39,579 bases of DNA, from the UHGV virus genome UHGV-0251828. One strand, given 5' to 3'. The notes under the pieces are model-generated. The model did not search any database and had not been told where the DNA came from. It worked only from the letters and a program-made list of their open reading frames with translations. Source of the stretch: a virus. Position numbers and translations under genes: made by a program. Positions 1,760-38,733 of this stretch are shown in pieces. Numbering within the stretch: position 1 is the first letter of the stretch; each line of letters begins with the position of its first letter.

Positions 1760-4234
1760 TTATTGCGGAGTGACATCCTGAGGTCGCCACCAGTATGTCT
1801 GGTTAAACTCTTTCTTCGAACGTTGCTCCATTTTACGCAAATAGCCTGGTGAAAAATACTCCTGCATCTGGTTAAAGATCATGTGATCGAGAGCCGCCTT
1901 CAAGTACCAGAGATTCGCACCAGGCATCAAACCTTTCCCCAGCTTCACCAGATCACCACCAGTCTGCTCACTCTTCCCTTCCACAGCATTTAACGGTATG
2001 CCCTGAGCAATCTTCACTACGTCATCAACCAGACCAGCTACCGGGCCAAGCATCGACGCCAGCGCGCCGCTTCCGTACCTAGTGTGATCTGACAATAAAA
2101 AGTCACCATAAAGGCCAAGACCACCACCTTTCAGTAGAGCACCAAGCCAGAATTTTGCGGCATCTTCTCCTGTCATCTCTCGAGGATTACGACCAGACGC
2201 AAGGTCGTTAAGTTGTTGCGACAAAGCGCCAAGAATGGTCGTACTGGCAATAAACGTCGCAATATATGCCGCACGCCCACCAGCAGACGGCATACCCATA
2301 GCGCGTGACCAGTGACGCATAACAACCGAGATAGGGAACGATTTAAACAGGAAAACACTTCTCGTTAATTCACCTTTCCATGTTCCACGCTGAATACCAG
2401 AACCGGTTATCAGTTGCTCACGTGCTCCCGGTGTAATAACAGCCATATCAACTTCTTCAGTTACGGCACCGAGCAGTTTACGCATTGCCTCAAATTTCAC
2501 GCGTTCAGGCTCACCAAGATGTTTAACTGCTGAATCAGGGATACGCATAATGCTTTCCGGTGTCAGCATCGTATTATTACCGTTCCCCCAGTCCTCCTGT
2601 TGCGCCAGCTTCCATACGCTCCAGTCTGTGTCAGTAATCCCTTTGCTTTTCAGGATACGAAAATCAGAGTCATCGAGGCTACGAAGGTCTGGTGTTCGTG
2701 ACACTACTTCTCCCAGGCTTCCCATCATGGTTACGCCATAGGCGCGCTTGTGCGCATCTGACCATGCTGTAAGCCCACTGGCACGCATTACCGCCGTTGC
2801 CGCCCAACGAGACACTGACGGCCCCATATTATCCATCGCCCAGCGGTTAACGCTGCCAAGTAGAGATTCCATCGCCAGACCAGCGCGGCGCGCCCGCGCA
2901 AGTTCTGTACGGTTCGTTGGGTCCATAGCTTCAAGCTGGTTGCGGAATAACTGGTTCATTGGAAGGTTGGTAACCTTCGCAGACAGATACATGGTTCCAA
3001 GATCAGAGAACGATGACAGCAACGCGGATCCGAGTCTGCTGGCAACCAGCCAGTTGCGGATATTGTCAGACCATCGCGCGATGTGCGGATTCGCTACAGG
3101 CTGTGTCTTTCCGGAAATAAAGTTGTACAGATTCTCTGTGTTGTTCGCCAGCCGCTCGACTTTACCGGTTTTACTCGGGTTAGCTGTTGCCGTTTCTGCC
3201 TTAACCTGATCAAGAAGGGAGCGGAAAACATGATCGGGGTTTGGACCATATGTTTCCACCAGTGCAATATCTTTACTGATACCTTCCAGGTGACCGACCA
3301 TGATTTCCCATAGAGAGCGATCGCCATAAAGTTGCTGATATTGCAGATAGGAATCTGCATCTTTGAAATGTATCTGTCGTGATGCATTACCACGGTTAGC
3401 ACGTGCGCCGGAAATTCGCATTCCGGTATCAGTAAGCTTATTCAGCCCACCAGTAGCGATCGTGTTATAAGCCTCTCCAAGAAATGCAGACAACTCGGCA
3501 TCGTTCATCAGTTGTCCATCGGCTCGGATATAATATTTGCGATCCAGCTTACCTATAACATCGCTAACCCACTTATCCTTTGATACCGCCCCAACCTTTT
3601 CCATAGAATGATGTTGAGGGATCCCCCAGTTTTCGAGATAGCCAATGTCCCCACCAGCATCATTAAACCTGCGGCGCAGTAGCTCTGTCACTTCTCTCCA
3701 CGCCTTAGCACCTTTTCTTGCTTTAGCATTGCCAGTATTTTGCCCCCGCATTTCATATACCAGGTCACGTACGCCCGCTTCATCTTCAAACAGACCAAAA
3801 AAGCGAGGATCAACTGCTTCGAATGCCTCCTGCAATTGACTCAATGCATAATCACGGGTGGCTTTTGTTCTGGATTCAACAGAGAGGAAATTCGATTTAC
3901 CGTCTGCATTAAAAGCAATAGTACGGTTAAGAGCGCCAAGTTTCCCATCAGCCCCTTGATAGCTATTGATAAATTTATCCAATCTCTGACGTGCGGCTAT
4001 AGTGAGGGCCACACGACGTTTCTTTAATGCCGCTTCTCGCTGTAATTCTTCAGATGCCAATTGTGCTGCACGATATAGCCGCTCTGATTCGGAAAGTTGT
4101 CTCCACGACATCGGGTCATCACGAGCAATGGAGCGCATATTTCGATAAATGCGGTCTTCAATGTTCTGTATTTCTCGCGCCGTTAACGTGCGCTGCGCCG
4201 CCTGCTGGACCGCTTGTATACATTCCTGTCTCAT
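1760..4234 (-). CDS. internal virion/ejection protein (T7 gp16-like position)
   Basis: 824-aa track ORF; GAGAGG SD; last large gene of the virion operon. Confidence 0.75.
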   Translation of the reverse strand: MRQECIQAVQQAAQRTLTAREIQNIEDRIYRNMRSIARDDPMSWRQLSESERLYRAAQLASEELQREAALKKRRVALTIAARQRLDKFINSYQGADGKLGALNRTIAFNADGKSNFLSVESRTKATRDYALSQLQEAFEAVDPRFFGLFEDEAGVRDLVYEMRGQNTGNAKARKGAKAWREVTELLRRRFNDAGGDIGYLENWGIPQHHSMEKVGAVSKDKWVSDVIGKLDRKYYIRADGQLMNDAELSAFLGEAYNTIATGGLNKLTDTGMRISGARANRGNASRQIHFKDADSYLQYQQLYGDRSLWEIMVGHLEGISKDIALVETYGPNPDHVFRSLLDQVKAETATANPSKTGKVERLANNTENLYNFISGKTQPVANPHIARWSDNIRNWLVASRLGSALLSSFSDLGTMYLSAKVTNLPMNQLFRNQLEAMDPTNRTELARARRAGLAMESLLGSVNRWAMDNMGPSVSRWAATAVMRASGLTAWSDAHKRAYGVTMMGSLGEVVSRTPDLRSLDDSDFRILKSKGITDTDWSVWKLAQQEDWGNGNNTMLTPESIMRIPDSAVKHLGEPERVKFEAMRKLLGAVTEEVDMAVITPGAREQLITGSGIQRGTWKGELTRSVFLFKSFPISVVMRHWSRAMGMPSAGGRAAYIATFIASTTILGALSQQLNDLASGRNPREMTGEDAAKFWLGALLKGGGLGLYGDFLLSDHTRYGSGALASMLGPVAGLVDDVVKIAQGIPLNAVEGKSEQTGGDLVKLGKGLMPGANLWYLKAALDHMIFNQMQEYFSPGYLRKMEQRSKKEFNQTYWWRPQDVTPQ

Positions 4235-4239
4235 TTAAT

Positions 4240-6042
4240 TTAACCTCTCAAGAAACACGCCACAGCGACATCAAACAGGCTGGAATCCTGTATTGCCTGC
4301 TCACTTTCCCTGTTCGCTTCATCCAGTACTTCACGCGCGCTGCGCGATTGTGGATTACCATCATCATCCAGCACGGTGATTATCATGTCCGGAGATTCAA
4401 GCAGCGAGTCTTCAGCTATACGCAGATCAATATCTCCTGCCGGATCTGCCATCATTTTTTGTTCTGTCTGTTGCAATATCTTACCGGGCTCAAAAGGAGC
4501 TACTTCGTCTGGCGTCCTGACCTCTGCTGTTTTATAGAATGAAACAGCCTGAGCATTAAGTTCACTTTCTGCCTGCTGTCGCCGTGCCAGTTCTGCTCGA
4601 GCTTCAAAAAACTGACCGCCAGGCTCATGCGGTGCCAACGCGTTACGGGAAAATTCCAGGCGTTCTTGTGCCTGCCGGATTCGTTGGTCAATATCGCGCA
4701 GTCTGGCCTGTTTATCTGATCGAGCACGAGATAAAGCCTTACCGCTACCGGTTGGCTCTTCTGCAAGAATTTGTGCGCGCTGTTCAGTGAGATTTTCAAT
4801 AATTCGTTGGCTATTAGCGATTTCAGACTGGTAAACCTGTCTATCGCCACGCGGCAAAAGCTGCGCGGCCTGTTCTTCAAGCAACCGATTTTCTATAGCG
4901 CGCGCCGTTACTCCATCATCTACAGATGACAGAGCCTCATTAACTGCCTGAGACAGCAGACTCTTGCGCCCAGGAATTTCACTGAAAGATGCAGACTCAA
5001 CAATGCTGGCAACGTCTACAGGCCTCCCCTGGCTAACATCAGACATGGCTTTTCGCAGAGCCTGAATGTGCGAATTACGCGAAAGCACGTTGATCGGAAC
5101 GCCGGGCGCAATATCAATTTCAGCATGATGAGCGGCATTCGCCGCCAGTGCAGCATCGATATCAACTGGTGAAAAATTTGGTGCGTTTGTAGACTCGCCG
5201 CGAGAGTTAATAAATCTGCCGACACCACCAAACGCCACCCCAAGAACAGCATCAATAGCAATTGCCTGTCGATCCAACACATCATACTGGTTAGCCATTT
5301 CGCTATAGCCACCATCACGAAGCGTTTTTGCAGTAAGCCCACGCTGTGCCATACCGAACGCAATATTTGTACCTGCGGCATAGGCAATATCTGGCGTTGC
5401 ACGTACTGCTGTTGCTGCGGCGCGTCGCACTGAACTCTCACCCGTCCGCGCAAGCTGAGCCGCCACACCTTCCGCCAGCGCACCACCAGCACGTAACCCG
5501 AGGCTCATAGGGATCAGTGTTCCGGCACCAGCAGTAATGCCCTGCACTAATCCCGCTTCCTGCGCCGTCCTGAAATCAACACCCTGTGCTGTCAGCCGTT
5601 CAAACTCAGAAAAACCCTGTAGCGAAGTTACCGCCGCTGCACCTCCGACAGGACCTCCGAGCGTTGTACCGACAACAGCCTGCCCGCCCATATCGAACAA
5701 CCCATAAAGAACCTGCCCGGCGGTTCCGGTTGTCGCGGCATCAGGCGTCAGCCGCTTAACCTGCTGCTCTGCTAGTTTTCTCTGCTCAGCAATGTATGAA
5801 ACTGAAGTGTCATTGAGCGAGGTGTTTTCGTTAACAAACTGAGCAATCGGGGATACGATTTTATCCATCCCTGCCCATAGCAACTGATCTGGCTTTGCCA
5901 CCAGCCCGGAGTACAAACCAGACAATGCCGCTCCTACAGCATTGTCGAAAAAACCAACATCGCTGTTAAAGCCAGCTGGATTTGATGCTGCTTCGTCAAG
6001 CTGCTGATTCTGGTTTACTGGATTAAGGCCAAAGTAACTCAT
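4240..6042 (-). CDS. internal virion/ejection protein
   Basis: 600-aa track ORF; ATGA overlap with upstream gene; Gly/Ala-rich. Confidence 0.75.
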   Translation of the reverse strand: MSYFGLNPVNQNQQLDEAASNPAGFNSDVGFFDNAVGAALSGLYSGLVAKPDQLLWAGMDKIVSPIAQFVNENTSLNDTSVSYIAEQRKLAEQQVKRLTPDAATTGTAGQVLYGLFDMGGQAVVGTTLGGPVGGAAAVTSLQGFSEFERLTAQGVDFRTAQEAGLVQGITAGAGTLIPMSLGLRAGGALAEGVAAQLARTGESSVRRAAATAVRATPDIAYAAGTNIAFGMAQRGLTAKTLRDGGYSEMANQYDVLDRQAIAIDAVLGVAFGGVGRFINSRGESTNAPNFSPVDIDAALAANAAHHAEIDIAPGVPINVLSRNSHIQALRKAMSDVSQGRPVDVASIVESASFSEIPGRKSLLSQAVNEALSSVDDGVTARAIENRLLEEQAAQLLPRGDRQVYQSEIANSQRIIENLTEQRAQILAEEPTGSGKALSRARSDKQARLRDIDQRIRQAQERLEFSRNALAPHEPGGQFFEARAELARRQQAESELNAQAVSFYKTAEVRTPDEVAPFEPGKILQQTEQKMMADPAGDIDLRIAEDSLLESPDMIITVLDDDGNPQSRSAREVLDEANRESEQAIQDSSLFDVAVACFLRG

Positions 6043-15538: not shown

Positions 15539-15835
15539 TCACTCCTGTTCACTGGCCTCTTTGGCCATCTTCAAATACTGTTCAGGGCAATGCGCCATAA
15601 CGCGCTGAAACAGTTCCAGCGCCAGATTGCGTTGCCCCTCATTAAATGCCATTGCCATAGCGTCCATCGGTGAGATAGCGGAAAACACACGGCCTTTCTC
15701 CAGCACCGACCAGACAACGCGACGCCCCTGTTCACTGCTCATGACAAAGCGAATGTCATCAATTTCACGCTGTGCCATGTCACGTTGCTTACGGGCGTTT
15801 TCTTCTTTCAGTTGATCGTCTTCGTAATCTGTCAT
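15539..15835 (-). CDS. hypothetical protein (98 aa) between portal and scaffold
   Basis: Track ORF, coupled to portal stop. Confidence 0.5.
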   Translation of the reverse strand: MTDYEDDQLKEENARKQRDMAQREIDDIRFVMSSEQGRRVVWSVLEKGRVFSAISPMDAMAMAFNEGQRNLALELFQRVMAHCPEQYLKMAKEASEQE

Positions 15836-17511
15836 TGTGATTGCCCACCCTGACCACTAACTGCATTCGCCATAGCTGACAAAACACTCGGATCCGAAGT
15901 TTTAGCTTCGCTTAGCGTCTTGGCACCCTGTGCCGCCGCCATCCCCATCGCCATCATTTGTTGCTGCTGTTGCTGCTGTGCCCGTTGCTGGCGAGCCTGC
16001 TCAACCTGTTCCTGCGGAACAATGACGGTTGGAGACACTCCGGACATATCAGCGAATGCATCGATCGCCTGATCAACGTTGAGTTTGTCGAGAGCTTCTG
16101 GTTTCGCTTGCGCAAGTTGACCAATGAAGTTAACCGTGGACGCCAGACTGGACAGGCCGATAGACTTCTGCGCCTGAGCCATGACGGAAATGTATTCGAC
16201 CTTCAGGGGCATGCCTTCCATCGCGTCAGGCGGTGGCGGCAGCATGTTTTTACGCACCATCATCGAGAAAGCGCGGTCAATGAGAGGATTAAGACATTCG
16301 TCGTTCAGACGCTCCAGAACCGGCCCCAACATCAGAAGTTTTTCTTCTTTCATTTCGATCACCGCTTCCACAGGCATCGAGCGGGTATTGATGTTCTGCA
16401 ACATCATGAACAGATCGACAAAGTAGGCGCTGTTAATGATTTGACGAGTGTCCTGAATGTCTGCCACCAGATCTGCTGTACTGGGGTTAACCAGATAAGC
16501 AGGCCTGAAACCATCCTGACCAGTAATCTGATCGATATACGTGATGTCGCCAGGAAGAAGGGAGGCGCGCTGATTCTTGAGGGAAGTCGGAGCAACCATC
16601 GGCGGATTGGTGGCTTTATCAATCAACTGCGACTTGCGCTTCTGAAGAAGCTGCAATGCCTTAACAGGTCCAAGCGCCAGCATACCCGGGCATGATGATC
16701 CATAAACATCTTCGCCGTTAACTTCCCAGCGCGGAGCCATAATTGGAAACTCATCGAATCCGGATTCACGTAACAACTTGTCGTTGTCGCCACCAACCTC
16801 GTAATAAACCGATTTGAATGGCTTGTTCTTGCTATCCAGCTTCGATGTATCGCGGTCAATGTTCGGGTAAACCGAATGCATCACTTCAATCCACTTCTCG
16901 TAGGTGCCGCTTTCCCACATGCTTTTTACGGATTCGCTGACGTTATTTAGTCCGAATTCCTGAACAAGCTGACGAACAGTCATAGAGAACTTGCGAAAAC
17001 AGGTGTCCACACTGCCACGAGGTGAGTTAGCCAGGTAGTAACTGCCTATCGGGAATGGCATTGTGCGAATGATGTCCTCGTCATCCTCCATCACTGCCAT
17101 TGCACCAGTGCTGTATGTGCCGAGGCTTCCGTATAACTGCGGCAGCGACTGATAGAGATTCGACTTATTGAACATATCGTTCATGCGGTTCTGCACCGCC
17201 TCAAGCCACAACTTAACAGGGCCATAATCCATCATTTCAGGATCTGGCGTAGCCAGGCGAAACCACGGACGCGCGGGGCTTGTGATGCCTGACATCATGC
17301 CGCTGGCGAGAGTGCGCGCCGCCATAGTCCCGGTCGAATCAATAATGCGTGTATTGCGTCGATCGTTACGGTTGACCTCAGAAGTCAGAAAGCGGGAACC
17401 ACGCGGGTTGATGTAATCACTCAACTCGCGCCAGTGCGGCTCGAACGACTGACGCTCGCTTTCAAGTTGTGCGAACTGTTTGTTCAATCGCTCTTTAGTT
17501 GTTTCCGCCAT
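15832..17511 (-). CDS. portal (head-to-tail connector) protein
   Basis: 559-aa track ORF downstream of terL; size and position. Confidence 0.85.
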   Translation of the reverse strand: MAETTKERLNKQFAQLESERQSFEPHWRELSDYINPRGSRFLTSEVNRNDRRNTRIIDSTGTMAARTLASGMMSGITSPARPWFRLATPDPEMMDYGPVKLWLEAVQNRMNDMFNKSNLYQSLPQLYGSLGTYSTGAMAVMEDDEDIIRTMPFPIGSYYLANSPRGSVDTCFRKFSMTVRQLVQEFGLNNVSESVKSMWESGTYEKWIEVMHSVYPNIDRDTSKLDSKNKPFKSVYYEVGGDNDKLLRESGFDEFPIMAPRWEVNGEDVYGSSCPGMLALGPVKALQLLQKRKSQLIDKATNPPMVAPTSLKNQRASLLPGDITYIDQITGQDGFRPAYLVNPSTADLVADIQDTRQIINSAYFVDLFMMLQNINTRSMPVEAVIEMKEEKLLMLGPVLERLNDECLNPLIDRAFSMMVRKNMLPPPPDAMEGMPLKVEYISVMAQAQKSIGLSSLASTVNFIGQLAQAKPEALDKLNVDQAIDAFADMSGVSPTVIVPQEQVEQARQQRAQQQQQQQMMAMGMAAAQGAKTLSEAKTSDPSVLSAMANAVSGQGGQSQ

Positions 17512-17525
17512 TTCAATGACTCCGG

Positions 17526-17732
17526 TTACTGACCAAGTAGCGTTTTACCGCTGGTATTAGCGGTTGATGTGTCGCCCTGAGAACCGGTAAGCAGCGTAGA
17601 ACTACGACCAGCAGCAGCGCGACGGCGACGAGTTTCTTCGTCGCGGGCATCAACAACGGCGGCATCCTGCTCCTGTGGTGCTGCCTGAACTTCTGGTGTT
17701 GCAGGCACTGATGGTGAGCTACCCATGCACAT
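17526..17732 (-). CDS. small hypothetical protein (68 aa)
   Basis: Track ORF; GGAG SD; the 12-nt initiation context CGGAGTCATTGA is duplicated before the portal start. Confidence 0.45.
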   Translation of the reverse strand: MCMGSSPSVPATPEVQAAPQEQDAAVVDARDEETRRRRAAAGRSSTLLTGSQGDTSTANTSGKTLLGQ

Positions 17733-17822
17733 ATCAATGACTCCGTACGCAATTAAATTATTACCAATTTAACCACATATGATTTATTTATCGTAGGCAG
17801 TTGACATTTAACGAACAAATTA

Positions 17823-17837
17823 TTACCTTTTAGGTAA
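17823..17837. promoter_or_regulatory. operator-family site TTACCTTTTAGGTAA (perfect 15-bp palindrome) at a plus-strand promoter
   Basis: TTGACA at 17801-17806 upstream; transcription would run toward the tRNA. Confidence 0.55.
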
Positions 17838-18159
17838 GTAAAGAATTCATTCCGGTTATTAACCTGACTGGCTTGTCGTTAAATTGAACAGGTGGGGTGA
17901 GCTTTTATTTTGAGCAGTACGGTGTATGGCACATGCGCCGATAGCGGTCTGGATACGTTTAAGGGGCACCCTCCCTTGCTCGGGCAAACGAACCAGGTAG
18001 CCGGAATGTGCAAGTCGAGCGGTTTTATTCCGCGCACGGGAATTCACCATCCCGGCGATTCGGTGTGACGCCTCGGAAGAGACGAGGGTACAACGCTGAG
18101 AGCATTTATGGAGCCGCGACAAAGTGTGGCGACTTAACAGGCTAAGTGCTCTCAGCGTT

Positions 18160-18236
18160 GTGGCATTAGCTCAGTTGGACAGAGCAACCGCCTTCTAAGC
18201 GGTTGGTCGCAGGTTCGAATCCTGCATGCCACGCCA
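18160..18236 (+). tRNA. tRNA-Arg (anticodon TCT)
   Basis: Hand-folded cloverleaf: 7-bp acceptor GTGGCAT/ATGCCAC, D-stem GCTC/GAGC, anticodon stem ACCGC/GCGGT with loop CTTCTAA, T-stem GCAGG/CCTGC, T-loop TTCGAAT, encoded CCA. Confidence 0.9.
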
Positions 18237-18279
18237 GAATCACGCTTAAGGACCGTGATGCCAGAAGTTCCAGGTGCTT

Positions 18280-18323
18280 GGCGGTGATGGTTTCCCTTGA
18301 AGGACTATCACCGCCCTTTTTAC
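18280..18323 (+). terminator. hairpin plus T-run downstream of tRNA
   Basis: GGCGGTGAT...ATCACCGCC stem with 18-nt loop followed by CTTTTTAC. Confidence 0.4.
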
Positions 18324-18399
18324 AGCAGGACGCCATTACGATGACTTCATGCTGTAAACCAGTACAGCCACGGAAGGCATAACTCATTGCTTCCAGTTC

Positions 18400-18424
18400 G
18401 CCCGGTTCGCCGGGCATTTTTTTA
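18400..18424 (+). terminator. intrinsic terminator-like hairpin abutting the next gene's SD
   Basis: GCCCGG-TTCG-CCGGGC hairpin followed by an 8-T run. Confidence 0.55.
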
Positions 18425-18434
18425 AGGTGAGATT

Positions 18435-18806
18435 ATGAACGACCAGCAAATCGAAAAAGAAATCGTTGAGAAAGGCAAAACTGCTCCGCGCGTTACGCCA
18501 GACCATATCGAAAGCATTATTGCTCAGGAGGCATATTTCACAGCAGAGGATGGTGCCTTTGGCAAAGCCATAAAAGCGAAACATACTGGCGGATATGTAA
18601 ACTACCAGCCGCACGAATCACTTTCTATGCTGACGTTCTGCGTCCTGGTGCTGCGCAACGGCTTCACCGTCACCGGAGAGAGCGCCTGTGCAAGCCCGGA
18701 AAACTTTGATGCAGAAATTGGTCGGAAGATTGCCCGGCAGAATGCTGTAAACAAAATCTGGATGCTTGAAGGTTACTTGCTGAAGCAGAAGTTAAGCGAG
18801 CAATAA
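18435..18806 (+). CDS. accessory protein of the phage Gp49/Sf6-gp66-like family (123 aa; from memory)
   Basis: Track ORF; AAGGTGA SD 6 nt upstream; opposite strand to flanking packaging genes. Confidence 0.65.
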   Translation: MNDQQIEKEIVEKGKTAPRVTPDHIESIIAQEAYFTAEDGAFGKAIKAKHTGGYVNYQPHESLSMLTFCVLVLRNGFTVTGESACASPENFDAEIGRKIARQNAVNKIWMLEGYLLKQKLSEQ

Positions 18807-18810
18807 CACC

Positions 18811-18822
18811 GTGACATGTCAC
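18811..18822. repeat. perfect 12-bp palindrome GTGACATGTCAC, copy 2 of 3
   Basis: Exact match, 5 nt after the Gp49-like stop and 4 nt before a terminator hairpin. Confidence 0.8.
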
Positions 18823-18826
18823 AAAC

Positions 18827-18854
18827 AGCCAGCCTATGAGCTGGCTTTGTTTTA
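18827..18854 (+). terminator. intrinsic terminator of the tRNA/Gp49-like island
   Basis: AGCCAGC-CTATGA-GCTGGCT hairpin followed by TTGTTTTA. Confidence 0.65.
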
Positions 18855-18896: not shown

Positions 18897-20372
18897 TTAA
18901 GCATAGGGATCGTAATCTGTAATGGCCTTTCCTTGCTGGTTCTGCTGACCTAGAATTCGCAGACGCTTCGACACAGGGAACGCAAACGTCAGCAGTAGCG
19001 CATCGCCTTTACCAGGAGAACGCCCAAGCCGCTCCTTGATATCTTCCTTCGGTTCGATAACGATTTTACCGTCCACTCGAACTTTGTACTCTGCCGCAGA
19101 CAGGTCGTCCGCTGTTTCCTGGTCATCCAGCATGCCGCCCAGCCTCAGCCATGTCTTGCATGAGTTGAACATCTCCCCACGCTTGTTGAGCATCTGCGGG
19201 TCAGTAGACGCGCCACCGAACGGAACAAGTTGCCATGTACGACCCCAGCCATCACCGATTGACTTCAGACCAGTTCCGTAACCGAAGTCGATGAACACTG
19301 CGTCAGCCTGGTACTGGTCTTCAAAGTCAGCGATACGCTTCGCCATAATCAGATCGTCAGTGGTCTTGTTGCCAGTCCACAGCACCTTACTGTGCAGCCC
19401 CTGCCGCAGGTATATCACAGCGTCATCAACGCCGGAGTATGCCGGGTCAACGCCGATTATCACCGGAGCATGTGCAACCTGCGCAGCGGTTACCACCCGT
19501 TTCATTGCCTCGTCAGTAAGGCCGGTAGGGATAAACTGCAATTCAGATGCATCAGGAAATATGCCGCGCACACGGATTTTAACGAAGTCGCTGTCTTCCC
19601 CGTAGTCATCAACCCATTTCTGCAACTGCTGTTTGTTAGTACCTTCCACCGTCCGGCTGTCAATCTGCGCAGTTTTCCAGCGGTGTTTGTATTTGCGGAA
19701 ACATTCGCGAAAACGCCCGGTATTACGTGTAGGGTTTCCGAACGCCACCCAGATAATCTCAGTGTCTTCGTCCGTTAGCGCACCCTCGGCAACTTCCCAC
19801 ACCAGATCCGCAATGTTCGACGCTTCATCGAATACCACAATGATGCGTTTGCGCTCGTTGTGTAGTCCGGCGAATGCCTCAGTGTTGTGCTCAGACCAGG
19901 GGATTGCGTCAGCTCGCCACCGCTTGTCGTGTCCAGGATCATTGCTGTACATCGCGGTAGCGGTACAGGTAAACCAGTCTTTCGTGATAGCAAGGTTCGA
20001 CCACTTGATAATTTCCGGCCAGGTCTTCGTTCGTAGCTGGTTGTCGGTGTTGGCGGTCACCACAACCTTACAATCCTCGCAAGTGGACATGCCCCAGTTG
20101 ATCAGCATTGAGATGAATGCGGATTTACCAATACCGTGACCCGAAGCACGTGCCAGCATAAGCGGCTGATAGCGAGTCTCTGGATTCTGCAGGTGATCAC
20201 GTATCTCTCGGAACGCATCAGCCTGCCACTGACGTGGACCGGTGGCATGTGCCAGTTCAGTCCCATCTTCCCCCCACGGGAACGCATAGAGGGCATAGCC
20301 AAGCGGATCGTGAGTGAACCCTGCAATATCCTCGATCAACTGCTCTTCAGGAGATAACGCTGCATCTGTCAC
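18897..20372 (-). CDS. terL: terminase large subunit
   Basis: 491-aa track ORF; GTG start overlapping terS stop (GTGA); AGGATGG SD. Confidence 0.85.
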   Translation of the reverse strand: MTDAALSPEEQLIEDIAGFTHDPLGYALYAFPWGEDGTELAHATGPRQWQADAFREIRDHLQNPETRYQPLMLARASGHGIGKSAFISMLINWGMSTCEDCKVVVTANTDNQLRTKTWPEIIKWSNLAITKDWFTCTATAMYSNDPGHDKRWRADAIPWSEHNTEAFAGLHNERKRIIVVFDEASNIADLVWEVAEGALTDEDTEIIWVAFGNPTRNTGRFRECFRKYKHRWKTAQIDSRTVEGTNKQQLQKWVDDYGEDSDFVKIRVRGIFPDASELQFIPTGLTDEAMKRVVTAAQVAHAPVIIGVDPAYSGVDDAVIYLRQGLHSKVLWTGNKTTDDLIMAKRIADFEDQYQADAVFIDFGYGTGLKSIGDGWGRTWQLVPFGGASTDPQMLNKRGEMFNSCKTWLRLGGMLDDQETADDLSAAEYKVRVDGKIVIEPKEDIKERLGRSPGKGDALLLTFAFPVSKRLRILGQQNQQGKAITDYDPYA

Positions 20373-24896: not shown

Positions 24897-24911
24897 TTAC
24901 CCCTTAGGTAA
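24897..24911. promoter_or_regulatory. operator-family site TTACCCCTTAGGTAA at an internal minus-strand promoter
   Basis: Perfect half-sites; minus-strand TTGATT-N17-TTTAAT promoter-like hexamers immediately upstream. Confidence 0.5.
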
Positions 24912-24958
24912 TTAAAAACCACATAAGACACGAAATCAATAGATTTTAGAATATTTTA

Positions 24959-24973
24959 TTACCTCAAAGGTAA
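24959..24973. promoter_or_regulatory. operator-family site TTACCTCAAAGGTAA
   Basis: Perfect 15-bp palindrome 62 bp from the 24897 site (same spacing as the 27978/28040 pair). Confidence 0.5.
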
Positions 24974-26880: not shown

Positions 26881-26895
26881 TTACCTTTGAGGTAT
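26881..26895. promoter_or_regulatory. operator-family site TTACCTTTGAGGTAT (one mismatch)
   Basis: Between the Cro-like gene and the next early gene. Confidence 0.35.
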
Positions 26896-26904
26896 GAATA
26901 GATA

Positions 26905-26928
26905 TGAAAAGACCGCCGGGTGGCGGTC
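26905..26928 (-). terminator. tR1-like hairpin downstream of the Cro-like gene
   Basis: GACCGCC-GGGT-GGCGGTC stem-loop with 4-U tract on minus strand. Confidence 0.4.
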
Positions 26929-26950
26929 TACAGAGGGTTGTGGCTGGATA

Positions 26951-27181
26951 TCATGAGTAGAAGAAGTATGCCAGTTCTGCTTTTGAGCGCAGCCATTGTC
27001 TTGTTTTACAGGCTTTAAAAAGCCCATTCATCAATACCTTACCTGGCATTTTGCGCTTACCTGTTAAGTGAGTCTGGATATAGTGACTCGTCGTTCCGGC
27101 TTCCTGTGCGAAGGCTTCACGCTCATCCGGAGTAAGTGCAAGCCAGTGCTTTTTGAAATCGAAATGTCCGTTATCGCTCAT
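26951..27181 (-). CDS. Cro-like early regulator (76 aa)
   Basis: Divergent from the repressor gene across a three-operator region. Confidence 0.55.
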   Translation of the reverse strand: MSDNGHFDFKKHWLALTPDEREAFAQEAGTTSHYIQTHLTGKRKMPGKVLMNGLFKACKTRQWLRSKAELAYFFYS

Positions 27182-27217
27182 AGCTATTGCCTGATATTTA
27201 TTTCAGATAATAAATAT

Positions 27218-27280
27218 TCACCCATAAGGTAACAAAAATCAAGAATAGTTACCTATGAGGTGCATTTACCTGTTGGGTAA
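27218..27280. promoter_or_regulatory. right-operator region: three operator-family sites
   Basis: TCACCCATAAGGTAA (27218-27232), TTACCTATGAGGTGC (27249-27263), TTACCTGTTGGGTAA (27266-27280) between divergent Cro-like and repressor genes. Confidence 0.65.
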
Positions 27281-27977: not shown

Positions 27978-27992
27978 TTACCTTATGGGTAA
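27978..27992. promoter_or_regulatory. left-operator site TTACCTTATGGGTAA
   Basis: Perfect half-sites, upstream of TTGACA at 28012-28017. Confidence 0.6.
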
Positions 27993-28039
27993 TTTTTTTA
28001 ACTCATATCTATTGACATCAAACCAGATACGCATAATTA

Positions 28040-28054
28040 TTACCTCAACGGTAA
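28040..28054. promoter_or_regulatory. left-operator site TTACCTCAACGGTAA overlapping the early-left promoter
   Basis: Perfect half-sites; TTGACA (28012-28017) with 17-bp spacer to an AATTAT -10-like element. Confidence 0.6.
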
Positions 28055-33061: not shown

Positions 33062-33076
33062 ATACCTTTAAGGTAA
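33062..33076. promoter_or_regulatory. operator-like site ATACCTTTAAGGTAA upstream of int
   Basis: One mismatch to TTACC-N5-GGTAA. Confidence 0.35.
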
Positions 33077-35383: not shown

Positions 35384-38233
35384 TTACTTATTTTTTTCCA
35401 TTGGTTCAGCCTTATTGAGTTGTTCCTTAAGCTTATTCCATGCTGAATCCTCAGGCATCTGTACTCGCACAGAAACGAACTGATTAGCAGGAATGTCGAT
35501 CGGGTCACCGTTCGAAACACCAGGGATGTCGTTACGTGCAAAAACTGGCGAGTTATCATGAGTGCGGTGAAACGTTTTCACCAACACAGAGCCATCTTGG
35601 TTAACAACATAATCCAGCCAGATGAGCGGCTGCTTGTTTCGGTCCTGCGGTATTTCAAATCCACCATCAATCCCCCCCCATGAAGCATCTGCATTCAGAC
35701 CTACGCAACCCTCAATCAGATATTCCCCCAATGCCAGCCGTGTGACGGTTACCCCATCTGATTCGCGATTTGTTTCACTACTACCGTCTGAGAAAATCTT
35801 CACAACCGGAGAGGCTTTTTTGATGAAACCACTTGAATCGACGGTCGTGTTCAGCGACGACCATGCCTCAGCCCAGCCTGTGTTACCTGCGCGAATAGCA
35901 TCGTCTGCGTAGCGGAAGAACAGTTTTGATGTTGTGGACATGAATATCTGCAACACACGGTTTTTTGCATATCCTGACTCCCATAATGCTCCGTTACCTG
36001 TTCCTTCTGGCTGCCAGTTTGTCACCCCACCTGCAGCTCCTACACTTACACCAGTAGACCAGTCTCCAGCAAATTCTGGAAGATTTAGTGAGTTAGGTGA
36101 GCGAATTGATACATCAACCAGACCAGGGGATCCGAGAATCGACATGCTGCGGGAGGACACCTTAGTAAAAGAGTTGTACCCGCCGTTTTTGGAAATCCTT
36201 CCTGTATAATTATTAGCCCTGTTAGTTCCATTAACTGTAATTTCCCAGGTATCGCCGTTGATGAAGTCGATCTGCAATAGGCAGAATGCTGGCAGCGTCA
36301 TCTGTCCTGGCGCAGATGGCCCACCTTCAAACAGTGGCATATCCTGTTCAAGATATGTCACATATCTACCTGCATCTGTATTCCGCAAATAGTCACAAAT
36401 AGCCTGTGCCGATGTAAATAGCGCAATACCATCAGCCGGGTTTACAGGGTGACGGCCAGCGTTAATCACCCTTCCGCGAGGGTTAAATAACTGTGATGAG
36501 GCATTGGATAGCGGAGTCATGTCTACTGTTCCAGGTTCATTAGATGGACAGTTAGCGCGAATGATGTTTAAAGTCCTATAATTTGATCCGCCCCCATTGT
36601 CATAGCGAATAGACTGTAGAAGATACAATTCCTCAGAGCCAGAAATATCACAAGACTGCACCCCCTCATTTTCAGTGGAGTAAACACTCTTCCCTGAATA
36701 ACTATCCCAGTATGTTTTGAAATCTGCAGGTGACAGCAGGTACTGACCTAATTCTGAACCATTAAGGCTGTACTCAATATAACCCTGCAACCCTGCGAAA
36801 GTATTTCCAGATCCCGCCGTGGTAGATGCACCAATACCAGCAAATATCCGTTGAGAACCAAGAGCGACACCCTGCCGTTTTGGTTTACCGGCTCCGCGAC
36901 CTCCAACATTTGCATCAACCGTAATAGTCCCCATTGGACTGTAAGATCCTTCTATAAGGCTGTTAATATCCAGTGTGTTAAAGATATTGGATACACCTGT
37001 CTCAACATCAAAAATTTTCGGCCAACCCATATCCGCATTTTCGTATATCAGGGTATTACCAAAGCCACTAAACTGATATCGCACTCCAAGGCGTGTTGAT
37101 TCAGTGAAGTTTGTAATCTGCGTTTTATCAACCAGCGTACGCGGATCTTCGATAGGGTAAATTCTGATAGTGCGAGATGGGCTGTACGGCAGCAGGATGT
37201 AACGCTGTCCTGCCACTCGGTAAACGTGGATGCCTTCTGGTGCACCAACGTTATTCGGAAAATGAAGACGTGTTACCAATGCTCCTGTTACCCAGTCATG
37301 CACCGTAACCCATACCGATGCGGGGTCTAGCGTCTGCCAGCCGATGTATACCATTCCATCATTGCTGTCTATGTAAATCCCCTGAAATCCCATGGTCGTG
37401 TAACCATACTGATCTTTAAGATCTGCGGTAATCTCATCGTCTATGATGCTGAATTCTAATTTCCAGTTCAGCGGCCTACGCGTACCACTGACATGCCTGG
37501 AAATATGAGACAGGTAGCTTTTTTTCCCTCCGGCCAAAATGTAACGCGAGGTTATTTCTGTCACTATGCCGACTGCAGCAGGAGTAACACGATAAACAGC
37601 CCCATTAATCCTGACAAAGTTTGAAATGGTTTTTATCTCATACCCGACAGACATGTCCAAGCGAGAGCTGTCATATTTGCCATTAGCGAGATCTGTAACA
37701 TACATTGCGTTGTCGATGTTATCAGGCCTAACTACCCCACTATATAAGTCTTGCACATATTTTTTTGTTACAGCATCCTGAGAGTTCTTCGGATCGGCCA
37801 AATTGGAAATTCTGTTTTGCTTTGCATCGTAATATTTTGCAAGCAAAGATGGTTTCATCAATGCACGTCTGAACCACCCAAAACATCGCTGGATCAGCAT
37901 CGTCAGGTAGTCAAATGCATCTTCATGAACTTCGGGGAAAAATTTTCCCTGATTGCGAAGATCAGTCTCCTGCACCACATCAAGCACACGCTCTATCGTG
38001 ATTCGCCAGCCAGCAGCAAGCGGCGACGGAAGAACCACTGCACCGCCACTATAAGTTCCCGCCCCTGTTACTGTATAACCAGCATCCAGCACTAGTTCTG
38101 TTACGTTACCGTTAAGGTCAGACACCTGAACAACCAGGTCGGATTTTTTGAAAATACGGAAGGTATACGGAAATGATGTCGTAACGCCGTTACCTGTGTA
38201 TTCGTTGTGGTCAACTTCGGTTGAGACCGTCAT
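35384..38233 (-). CDS. tailspike protein
   Basis: 949-aa track ORF; GGAG SD; Ser/Gly/Asn-rich central region. Confidence 0.85.
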   Translation of the reverse strand: MTVSTEVDHNEYTGNGVTTSFPYTFRIFKKSDLVVQVSDLNGNVTELVLDAGYTVTGAGTYSGGAVVLPSPLAAGWRITIERVLDVVQETDLRNQGKFFPEVHEDAFDYLTMLIQRCFGWFRRALMKPSLLAKYYDAKQNRISNLADPKNSQDAVTKKYVQDLYSGVVRPDNIDNAMYVTDLANGKYDSSRLDMSVGYEIKTISNFVRINGAVYRVTPAAVGIVTEITSRYILAGGKKSYLSHISRHVSGTRRPLNWKLEFSIIDDEITADLKDQYGYTTMGFQGIYIDSNDGMVYIGWQTLDPASVWVTVHDWVTGALVTRLHFPNNVGAPEGIHVYRVAGQRYILLPYSPSRTIRIYPIEDPRTLVDKTQITNFTESTRLGVRYQFSGFGNTLIYENADMGWPKIFDVETGVSNIFNTLDINSLIEGSYSPMGTITVDANVGGRGAGKPKRQGVALGSQRIFAGIGASTTAGSGNTFAGLQGYIEYSLNGSELGQYLLSPADFKTYWDSYSGKSVYSTENEGVQSCDISGSEELYLLQSIRYDNGGGSNYRTLNIIRANCPSNEPGTVDMTPLSNASSQLFNPRGRVINAGRHPVNPADGIALFTSAQAICDYLRNTDAGRYVTYLEQDMPLFEGGPSAPGQMTLPAFCLLQIDFINGDTWEITVNGTNRANNYTGRISKNGGYNSFTKVSSRSMSILGSPGLVDVSIRSPNSLNLPEFAGDWSTGVSVGAAGGVTNWQPEGTGNGALWESGYAKNRVLQIFMSTTSKLFFRYADDAIRAGNTGWAEAWSSLNTTVDSSGFIKKASPVVKIFSDGSSETNRESDGVTVTRLALGEYLIEGCVGLNADASWGGIDGGFEIPQDRNKQPLIWLDYVVNQDGSVLVKTFHRTHDNSPVFARNDIPGVSNGDPIDIPANQFVSVRVQMPEDSAWNKLKEQLNKAEPMEKNK

Positions 38234-38318
38234 GTTAAATCTCCAGATAGTCGCAGCACCCGTTGCGCCGCATATCTGGTTATTCTATTACCTGAAAAAC
38301 CACATATGGATAGAAAGA

Positions 38319-38334
38319 CTGTGAATATGAACAG
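38319..38334. promoter_or_regulatory. LexA (SOS) box-like CTGTGAATATGAACAG
   Basis: Fits CTGT-N8-ACAG with AT-rich centre. Confidence 0.55.
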
Positions 38335-38337
38335 ATA

Positions 38338-38352
38338 TTACCTTTCGGGTAA
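38338..38352. promoter_or_regulatory. operator-family site TTACCTTTCGGGTAA between two LexA boxes
   Basis: Perfect half-sites. Confidence 0.55.
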
Positions 38353-38391
38353 TTTGCAAAACGTGCTGGATAGCAAACAAATTATTTGATA

Positions 38392-38407
38392 CTGTATAAA
38401 TATACAG
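38392..38407. promoter_or_regulatory. LexA (SOS) box CTGTATAAATATACAG
   Basis: Near-consensus CTGT-N8-ACAG palindrome 23 bp upstream of the 38415 ATG; TTGATA just 5'. Confidence 0.7.
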
Positions 38408-38429
38408 TTATTGCATGGAGAAGATTAAG

Positions 38430-38687
38430 ATGCAGCAGTATCACTATCCACTGGAAGACGGATTTACCGAAAGGATTCACACGCCGGGAGGCGTCAGGTC
38501 ACTGGTGGAAGGATCGCACTTGATGAAATTACTCCGGGATCTCGATAAGGATGGATTTAATGTCGATGGCCCACTTGCCGAACTGACTGCACTGATTAAC
38601 TACGTCACCAGCTCACAGATGTCTATGCGGGATCTGCAAACACATCTCGACTATTGTGCCGAACAATTACGAAAACAAACCAGATAA
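38430..38687 (+). CDS. SOS-regulated small protein (~85 aa), candidate small antirepressor
   Basis: ATG at 38430 with GGAG SD (track ORF starts at 38415). Confidence 0.5.
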   Translation: MQQYHYPLEDGFTERIHTPGGVRSLVEGSHLMKLLRDLDKDGFNVDGPLAELTALINYVTSSQMSMRDLQTHLDYCAEQLRKQTR

Positions 38688-38718
38688 GGTTTGCAATTAC
38701 CAAGTGGAGTGCTTATAT

Positions 38719-38733
38719 TTACCTTTGCGGTAA
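38719..38733. promoter_or_regulatory. operator-family site TTACCTTTGCGGTAA
   Basis: Perfect half-sites between the small SOS gene and the Bro-N gene. Confidence 0.55.

Follow-up and report, generated by a model that had tools for sequence, protein, structure and literature searches.

The virus genome UHGV-0251828 was analysed over a stretch of 39,579 nucleotides (nt; hereafter the window), which belongs to a phiV10/epsilon15-type podophage, positions 17733-18434 being 97.7% identical to phiV10. Between the portal gene (15832-17511) and terL (18897-20372), both on the minus strand, lies a unit on the opposite, plus strand, with which terL is convergent. In order, this unit contains a predicted promoter with an operator, about 320 nt without a conserved open reading frame (ORF), a transfer RNA (tRNA), tRNA-Arg(TCT), two intrinsic terminators (T1 and T2), an ORF encoding a Gp49-like protein and a third terminator (T3). 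Most of this arrangement had been proposed in an initial annotation, all the listed features of which were found at or within 1-2 nt of where it had placed them. The tRNA, the terminators and the Gp49-like gene are features of already known kinds; the new finding is the leader preceding the tRNA, which harbors a member of a structured RNA family (referred to here as the core).

The core (17920-18087, plus strand) consists of two domains, P1-P2 and P3-P4/pseudoknot-P5, and was delimited with a covariation model (R1) that scores 130.6 bits against the window (E about 1e-45), where a single copy is present. The window sequence of the core folds with an energy of -103.4 kcal/mol (z=-3.6). Among 31 representatives 96.6% of the alignment cells pair and 11 pairs show compensatory changes, values reached by none of 500 shuffles. 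A model-based alignment extended to 93 distinct sequences gave 96.1% paired cells and compensatory changes in 16 of 23 pairs (230 such cells); again, none of 500 shuffles reached any of the measures, and slid controls paired at 33-40%. This is the conserved structure that had been set beforehand as a test for the leader. The RNA is on the plus strand, since several of the conserved G.U pairs would become A.C on the minus strand. The alignments show invariant blocks alternating with variable hairpins, and no conserved ORF was found in the leader, as no frame is open in more than 11 of the 31 representatives and lengths vary in all classes modulo 3; on these grounds a protein-coding leader was ruled out. 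With compensatory changes beyond those of the controls, strand-specific G.U pairs and the absence of a conserved ORF, the core passes a general test for structured non-coding RNA and is almost certainly a real, conserved RNA family. The roughly 320 nt had been described as GC-rich and non-coding, and only the second attribute stands: the G+C fraction is 0.55-0.56, not above that of the flanking genes, and its distinctive trait is rather a G-over-C skew of about +0.1.

The 5' domain opens with the P1 hairpin (17920-17940; stem 17920-17925/17935-17940), whose loop holds an invariant GGCACAU and whose stem covaries, pair 5-17 being G-C in 41 and A-U in 41 sequences and pairs 3-19 and 4-18 covarying too. 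An alternative pairing given by RNAalifold (2-4/99-101 and 19-21/87-89) showed no covariation and the P1 stem was preferred. It is followed by the P2 helix (17944-18001; 17944-17952/17993-18001). The base of P2, which is replaced in the L170 group of related loci, contains conserved pairs (one G.A and two G.U); distally there is a variable insert, and the pairs there covary (C-G in 53 and U-A in 31 sequences; G-C/A-U). Downstream, the segment AUGUGC (18006-18011), invariant in alignment A2, may pair with the P1 loop to form a pseudoknot (PK1), which remains a candidate because the partners are invariant in most sequences and the rare variants are uncompensated.

The 3' domain begins with P3 (18017-18035), a hairpin with local GCGG/CCGC pairing that varies in length and sequence in A2. 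In P4 (18039-18053; stem 18039-18042/18050-18053, loop UUCACCA) all four pairs covary, and its loop takes part in a second pseudoknot (PK2) formed by CACC (18045-18048) with GGUG (18062-18065), in which 28 sequences have C-G and 3 have A-U at pair 137-157. At 18041/18051 in P4, where 30 of the 31 representatives have G-C, the window copy shows an A.C mismatch. P5 (18071-18087, CCUCG-GAAGAGA-CGAGG), with four of five pairs covarying, is the most widely kept block and is found with other 5' halves too. In L172, L206 and L229 the half formed by P3, P4, the pseudoknot and P5 stands behind a different, shorter 5' half, and in L191, L174 and L219 it occurs alone, right after a promoter; therefore the two halves are separable domains. 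PAT1-type phages carry a different 3' extension.

In most members P5 is followed by a long hairpin (P6), a tRNA-shaped slot (P7), a further hairpin (P8) and one or two intrinsic terminators. P6 spans 72 nt in the window (18090-18161), with 19-nt arms (18090-18108/18143-18161) that are 95% complementary. It corresponds to the inverted repeat thought to bracket the leader: the repeat is real, and what it forms is a local hairpin at the 3' end of the leader. Across members the arms are conserved (CAACGnUGAGAGCA/UGCUCUCAGCGUUG) with compensatory changes, and the interiors are unrelated even between copies with near-identical cores. Pair 18095/18156 of P6 is C-G in the window copy vs A.G in its closest relatives. 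A boxA-like reading of the 3' arm (UGCUCUUU in some members) was ruled out, as this segment is base-paired and covarying. The P7 slot opens with GUGG and closes with CCAC adjoining a T-arm-like hairpin; after GTTG it holds tRNA-Arg(UCU) in 25 of 81 parsed loci and, in the others, one of several unrelated modules of about 70-110 nt. Some exchangeable modules contain tRNA-like pieces to which ARAGORN gave no call, namely a sequence with a full acceptor stem and a large insertion in the slot of L191, and tRNA-like or T-arm-like pieces in the P6 interior of L102, L011 and L158 (3190-3285), with T-arms such as GGTTCGATTCC in the modules of these four loci.

On the 3' side of the slot, P8 (18239-18259, AUCACG-CUUAAGGAC-CGUGAU) is part of the shared 3' tail of the family, and the same hairpin occurs after non-tRNA modules in L122, L014, L108 and BUCT709. 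T1 (18280-18321; hairpin 18280-18315), with 14 pairs plus a T run, ends the RNA unit, and an equivalent terminator lies behind most family members, terminator-like hairpins being enriched downstream of the core (mean 1.30 vs 0.54 in control regions). Since P8 and T1 of the window match the 3' tail of the family, the unit is the family's RNA unit and the tRNA is its cargo. Thus, tRNA-Arg is better described as one exchangeable cargo module than as a tRNA gene with a private leader.

The exchange of modules could also be taken as the mark of an element acting at the DNA level, with the junctions CAAC/GTTG and GTGG/CCAC as recombination sites for cassette exchange, or of a single-strand initiation or packaging signal. 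In line with this, module interiors are swapped between otherwise near-identical copies, the junctions superficially resemble attC cores and the copy of Uetakevirus adjoins the terminase genes. Nonetheless, the conserved G.U pairs work on one strand only, the element invariably points in the direction of transcription, no recombinase is a regular neighbor and the contexts in lambdoid phages and P1 are unrelated to packaging, all of which makes a DNA element highly improbable.

The tRNA-Arg(UCU) of the window (18160-18236, plus strand), with an encoded CCA, was called by ARAGORN and by the Rfam tRNA model (RF00005, 73.3 bits, cut-off 29), confirming the first call, and GenBank and RefSeq relatives already label it tRNA-Arg. 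It shows the traits of a tRNA and of the arginine UCU isoacceptor, namely a cloverleaf, a 7-bp acceptor stem, a T-loop and the anticodon UCU. The likeness to argU with a different acceptor stem, which had been noted initially, proved correct: 64 of 77 positions (83.1%) are identical to K-12 argU, the anticodon loop (CUUCUAA) and the T-arm are the same, the D-arm differs by one D-loop base and five compensatory pair changes account for all differences in the acceptor and anticodon stems. As the identity elements for arginyl-tRNA synthetase (A20, C35, U36, G73) and the CCA end are also kept, it is, judged from its sequence, a functional-looking, argU-like phage tRNA-Arg(UCU) of an ordinary kind. 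Two roles had been suggested for it. For resistance to tRNA-targeting nucleases no support was found, the anticodon loop and A20, C35, U36 and G73 being those of argU. Codon usage favors the other role: per 1000 codons of 33 window ORFs there are 4.9 AGA and 4.1 AGG, with the highest concentrations in tail genes and some of the early ones, and in E. coli K-12 they occur at roughly 2 and roughly 1 per 1000 codons, a two- to threefold difference that makes a supply of AGA decoding plausible, though modest. Phage-encoded rare-codon tRNAs include argU-like tRNAs, the ileX-like tRNA-Ile2 of P1 and the ileZ-argN-argO set of Stx phages. The tRNA of the window, 83% identical to argU, differs from other such tRNAs in that its acceptor and anticodon stems have been rebuilt by compensatory changes and in that it is a module inside a larger conserved RNA unit.

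The initial annotation had viewed the leader as a possible non-coding RNA or processed precursor. A structured, non-coding leader that may be processed is what was found; it is specific neither to the phage nor to the tRNA. Among 129 collected loci, the core is followed by tRNA-Arg in 26 and preceded by tRNA-Ile2 in 18 (the P1-type loci, where the tRNA lies 96 nt before the core), and the remainder have no nearby tRNA. A close variant of that view, in which the core serves tRNA expression only, as the 5' leader of the precursor or as a scaffold for its processing or stabilization, would account for these 26 and 18 loci and for the 2-nt overlap between the 5' end of tRNA-Arg and a conserved GUUGUGG. 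It does not explain why about two thirds of the loci lack a nearby tRNA or why the core lies 3' of the tRNA in P1 and 5' of it elsewhere, and the conservation far exceeds the needs of a processing leader; hence, this explanation is very unlikely.

A BLAST search with the leader alone matched 83 phage records. Besides phiV10-type phages these include lambdoid phages (cdtI, mEp460, Stx2a and Stx2c converting phages, 2H10 and Ayreon), the P1 group (P1, P7, D6, SJ46 and RCS47), the Salmonella phages PAT1 and SPN1S, Enterobacter phage Tyrion, Klebsiella phage SopranoGao and a phage recorded on Stenotrophomonas. An invariant 18-mer of the core (GTAGCCGGAATGTGCAAG, 17997-18014) is present in more than 120 IMG/VR contigs, and so is a second, different anchor. 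Using the 18-mer and R1, the element was located in 23 loci from 17 Enterobacterales species, and was absent at four other 18-mer matches in Bacteroidales, Oscillospiraceae and Azonexus genomes. A 1.7-kb contig binned as a Bacillota metagenome-assembled genome (L151) contains a full-scoring core (150 bits) and is probably a misbinned enterobacterial phage fragment. The 168-nt core was found in 1830 of 5426 complete E. coli genomes (about one third), at 1908 chromosomal and 550 plasmid places and with up to four per genome, and no annotation lies under any of the matches listed. In one of 100 sources (L025) two copies occur in tandem, about 650 nt apart on the minus strand (4807-4957 and 4000-4152). 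Full-text literature searches found no description of the core RNA, and the paper on vB_EcoP_ZX5 does not mention the region. The core is a horizontally spread RNA of temperate enterobacterial phages, apparently undescribed.

Four phage contexts were distinguished: the pL leader of N-less lambdoids, the region upstream of ban in P1, the gap between portal and terL in Uetakevirus, and Klebsiella phages. In the lambdoids cdtI, mEp460 and Stx2a_1447 the repressor gene is followed by a terminator, a strong operator-bearing pL, about 50 nt and the core, and then by P6, a slot module, the tail, one or two hairpin/T-run terminators and the first early-left gene; cdtI, for instance, has the cI stop codon, a terminator, a promoter matching 11 of 12 consensus positions with a palindromic operator (pL), the core, the modules, a terminator and the first early-left gene. 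The two hairpin/T-run terminators of Stx2a_1447 and mEp460 were read by eye and not called by the scanner. No promoter was found between the core unit and the first early-left gene in these three phages, and the first genes after the RNA in lambdoids (yfdP-like and others) are not N-like. P1 and P7 carry the bare core within a C1-controlled operon, between trnI and ban and about 100 nt before the latter, and it runs into the ban ribosome-binding site without a terminator, thus it cannot be a discrete terminated small RNA there. In L172 the core is directly the 5' leader of an early gene, and in BUCT709-type genomes the element comes after a small helix-turn-helix gene and heads an operon. In Uetakevirus the RNA unit occupies a fixed place between portal and terL, under a phage operator, and is followed by a variable small ORF. 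As downstream ORFs differ between contexts, there is no conserved protein partner, and the Gp49-like protein or any other ORF was discarded as such.

The yfdP-yfdT operon, which follows the RNA in cdtI-type lambdoids, is kept in the CPS-53 region of K-12 (L160 9247-9605, upstream of yfdP), where the RNA is replaced by an iteron-like repeat region. Identity with a named K-12 small RNA was excluded, since the homologous region has lost the RNA, and this loss may be the reason why the RNA escaped study. Other RNAs were encountered in the same genomes. Matches at Rfam level to the C4 antisense RNA and isrK lie beside the antirepressor gene, on the pR side, of RNA-carrying lambdoids (L001 777-965, L003 706-894 and L158 708-896, minus strand of the loci), Enterobacter phage Tyrion has an int-alpA RNA match downstream of the unit (L007 3598-3662) and in HK639 an "M3-like RNA" is annotated after cII (L161 12911-12970).

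Regarding the start of the unit in the window, a sigma-70-type promoter is predicted at 17801-17829 (-35 TTGACA at 17801-17806, a 17-nt spacer and a weak -10, TACCTT, at 17824-17829). It was read from the sequence, the consensus scanner having missed it because of the weak -10. A perfect, operator-like palindrome (TTACCTTTTAGGTAA, 17823-17837) overlaps the -10 and the start site, in agreement with the operator-overlapped promoter described initially. Allowing up to 3 mismatches, 20 related sites occur in the window vs 0.78 expected from shuffles, clustered in regulatory regions (207-221, 24897-24973, 26881-27280, 27978-28054, 33062-33076 and 38106-38733), therefore the palindrome is a genome-wide operator. 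The dispersed sites, of the form TTACC-N5-GGTAA, look like a dispersed repressor regulon, as in P1. The same promoter-operator arrangement is present in relatives L066, L073, L122, L175 and L242. The transcript would begin with a 5' leader of about 84 nt (17836-17919), kept only among Uetakevirus copies; within it, GTCGTTAAAT..GGTGGAGTG..GCTTT is common to PAT1, Tyrion, L011 and L042. A second, closer promoter is possible at about 17885-17912 (TTGAAC-16-TATTTT).

Downstream of the RNA unit, T2 (18400-18423; hairpin 18400-18415) precedes the ribosome-binding site of the Gp49-like gene by 12 nt, and T3 (18827-18852; hairpin 18827-18846) faces the 3' end of the convergent terL. T1, T2 and T3 are predicted terminators called by pattern (a GC-rich hairpin followed by a T run); two hairpin/T-run elements had been noted initially. 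Between T1 and T2 there is an imperfect hairpin (18319-18358) with 18-nt arms that are 83% complementary, followed by a short stretch ending in T2 that gave a weak, non-significant RyhB-like match (E=2.8). This segment (18316-18423) may represent a small RNA of its own or a further attenuator. The Gp49-like ORF (18435-18806, plus strand, 123 amino acids; PHROG 322) covers the full profile of Pfam Phage_gp49_66 (PF13876) with E=2.2e-35 and 121.4 bits (gathering cut-off 27), which validates its initial assignment, and a consensus scan of the window detected no promoter of its own. On the other side of the unit, a 68-amino acid ORF on the minus strand just upstream of portal (17526-17732; PHROG 831), rich in Ala, Gln and Arg, is conserved across Uetakevirus.

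Based on these arrangements, it can be tentatively proposed, at somewhat below an even chance, that the core acts in cis as a processive antitermination or anti-polarity element, functionally like the put RNA of HK022. It would then be a functional analogue of HK022 put, the EAR RNA of Bacillus and the rrn and nut leaders. This proposal is drawn from several observations: the element is always co-oriented with downstream genes, repressor-controlled early transcripts have the core at their start or close to it, in lambdoids it stands exactly where nutL-N or putL would be, before two terminators by which the operon would otherwise be silenced, and P1 keeps the core alone, as a 5' untranslated region. 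The fact that no protein is a constant neighbor suggests that the partner is probably a conserved host machine. In the proposed sequence of events, the repressor-controlled early promoter would transcribe the core followed by the exchangeable hairpin modules, and the nascent core would act in cis on the transcribing host RNA polymerase. In the window the polymerase would then cross about 400 nt of untranslated, heavily folded RNA as well as T1 and T2 and reach the promoter-less Gp49-like gene; the modified polymerase would similarly reach the whole early-left operon in lambdoids and ban in P1. Cleavage by RNase P at the 5' end of the tRNA and probably by RNase III in the 19-bp P6 would separate the core, the tRNA and the tail, and the released tRNA could decode AGA.

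The put system is the nearest point of comparison. Read-through of terminators in cis by put RNA depends on the zinc-binding domain of the beta-prime subunit of RNA polymerase. The put RNAs (putL and putR) of HK022 and HK639 are cis-acting, RNA-only processive antiterminators (PMC9378689). They lie in the same place after the repressor gene as the lambdoid cores, which are found just downstream of a repressor-controlled pL in N-less phages (cdtI, mEp460, Stx2a_1447); in both cases terminators and early genes follow, the window likewise having an operator-controlled promoter and T1 and T2 before the ORF. Both have no protein partner, an enterobacterial host range and a two-stem 5' part. Stem I of put and P1 share ACGGCG...CAUGCGUCG, a likeness that a rough estimate places borderline above chance and that is a lead only. 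In contrast, the core is longer (about 150-170 nt vs about 70 nt), has a second, pseudoknotted domain and 3' cargo modules, occurs also outside lambdoids (P1, Uetakevirus), is present in one copy per genome with no equivalent of putR and is commoner (83 phage records vs 21). It does not match the put consensus, which comprises two stems (GAACGGCGCG..AAACCAUGCGUCGG..GGCGGGYUCAGGAWGARCGGCAAU). A put model (R2) built from six putL sequences, which scores putL at 92-97 bits and the untrained putR of HK022 at 37.7 bits, was run unfiltered at E<=10 against the window and the core of nine loci and had no match; conversely, R1 had no match in HK022 or HK639.

Other known RNAs share some of these features. 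The EAR RNA of the eps operons of Bacillales is a structured, pseudoknotted RNA of about 120 nt that promotes processive antitermination from inside the operon, a position comparable to that of the mid-operon copy in P1. It comes from another phylum, and neither the core region of the window nor the RNA modules of 15 other loci matched any Rfam family (inclusion of EAR in Rfam was not checked): at E<=10 none of the 4227 models of Rfam 15 matched 17920-18159 on the plus strand, the RNA modules of the 15 loci gave no match at gathering score, and the scans of the window and related loci returned only tRNA, plus C4, isrK and int-alpA elsewhere. The CI RNA of P4 and the C4 RNA of P1 and P7 are leader RNAs of early operons in which a tRNA-like acceptor/T-arm shape creates an RNase P substrate. 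The core resembles them in its place in an untranslated early-operon leader and in the P7-slot modules closed by GUGG...CCAC beside a T-arm-like hairpin, and differs in that real C4 and isrK matches are located elsewhere in the carrier phages. A role as antisense regulator of phage genes was discarded as well, since no complementarity of 13 nt or more to phage genes was detected and the four 12-mers found compare with about three expected.

Several observations weigh against antitermination. Reciprocal searches with the covariation models ruled out that the core is a put RNA, and the pseudoknot involving the P1 loop lacks covariation support. In the Uetakeviruses L066 and L102 the convergent terL comes directly after the RNA unit, which leaves no downstream gene to serve, and many copies resemble RNA genes complete in themselves, as a promoter lies 5-8 nt upstream and a strong terminator ends them. 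The tandem duplication in L025 counts in the same direction, and in the window a terminator-resistant polymerase would run past T3 into terL antisense. For the RNA-only loci, the gene-like units, the tandem copies and the predicted terL antisense transcript, antitermination is given less than an even probability.

Some of these observations fit a discrete, stable RNA acting in trans, in which the core, alone or with its modules, is the product. This product would attach to, or imitate, some conserved component of the host, such as RNA polymerase, an RNase, the ribosome or an enzyme that handles tRNAs, or it would form a larger RNA assembly. Promoters located 5-8 nt upstream (L006, L014, L035, L172 and L191), strong terminators behind most units, RNA-only loci in Uetakevirus, a place conserved across a whole phage genus, the extreme sequence conservation of unpaired segments, the tRNA or tRNA-like cargo and the tandem copies of L025 are all consistent with such a product, the tRNA and tRNA-like modules being then co-products or decoys freed by RNase P. 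Its parallels would be the stable RNAs called species 1 and 2, from the tRNA cluster of T4, or the phage-associated, tRNA-adjacent GOLLD, in which a tRNA is embedded, and ROOL. GOLLD and ROOL are large, prophage-borne RNAs with a modular, ornate architecture (PMC12286853). The likeness to them is a functional grouping and not homology; it extends to the prophage location, to a tRNA adjoining the core unit in 44 of 129 loci and to the tRNA-like sequences in P6 or the P7 slot of L102, L191, L011 and L158. On the other hand, no Rfam match relates the core to GOLLD, ROOL or any other family, its unit is smaller (about 400 nt, with a core of 150-170 nt) and it belongs to Enterobacterales, and theirs are from Lactobacillales and from rumen or lake samples. 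In addition, the copies of P1, P7 and L172 lack a signal for a 3' end and continue directly into a coding gene, efficient termination of the lambdoid unit, located between pL and all early-left genes, would silence the operon, and no antisense target of at least 13 nt exists in the phage. A trans-acting RNA is the main alternative, with a somewhat lower probability than antitermination.

The position of the core in 5' leaders upstream of terminators, together with its compact fold of about 150 nt, which includes a pseudoknot and many unpaired nucleotides that do not vary, would also suit a leader that senses a ligand or factor (a riboswitch or attenuator) and sets the passage of T1 and T2, tying the lysis-lysogeny program to a host signal. 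Yet the terminators, separated from the core by 150-600 nt and by exchangeable modules, show no sequence relationship among members, for which riboswitch-style pairing between core and terminator was rejected; no conserved alternative pairing of this kind was found, P1 and L172 have no terminator and no known aptamer matches. Sensing is thus an improbable function, although less so than a tRNA leader or a DNA element.

Returning to the cis-acting antiterminator, a broader proposal can be advanced with considerable reserve. The core may represent a new RNA class that reprograms a conserved host machine, likeliest RNA polymerase, without a phage protein, that has passed horizontally between temperate enterobacterial phages of at least four unrelated groups (P1 and the Stx-converting lambdoids among them), and that serves as a chassis for exchangeable tRNA and tRNA-like cassettes inserted by recombination, tRNA-Arg being one cargo of this RNA-level platform and no stand-alone gene.

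Altogether, about one third of complete E. coli genomes contain, without annotation, a strongly conserved, folded RNA that also occurs in Stx- and cdt-converting lambdoids and in other Enterobacterales, and that phage P1 carries directly upstream of ban. If the core is an antiterminator, it would join put and EAR as a third structural class of RNA-only processive antiterminators, would explain early-left expression past two terminators in many N-less lambdoids and could provide a compact part for synthetic biology. If it acts in trans, it would be the enterobacterial counterpart of the tRNA-associated GOLLD and ROOL RNAs, in a genetically tractable host. Under either reading, some phage tRNAs would have to be regarded as modules of a larger RNA unit, and annotation pipelines would require a new model to recognize it.

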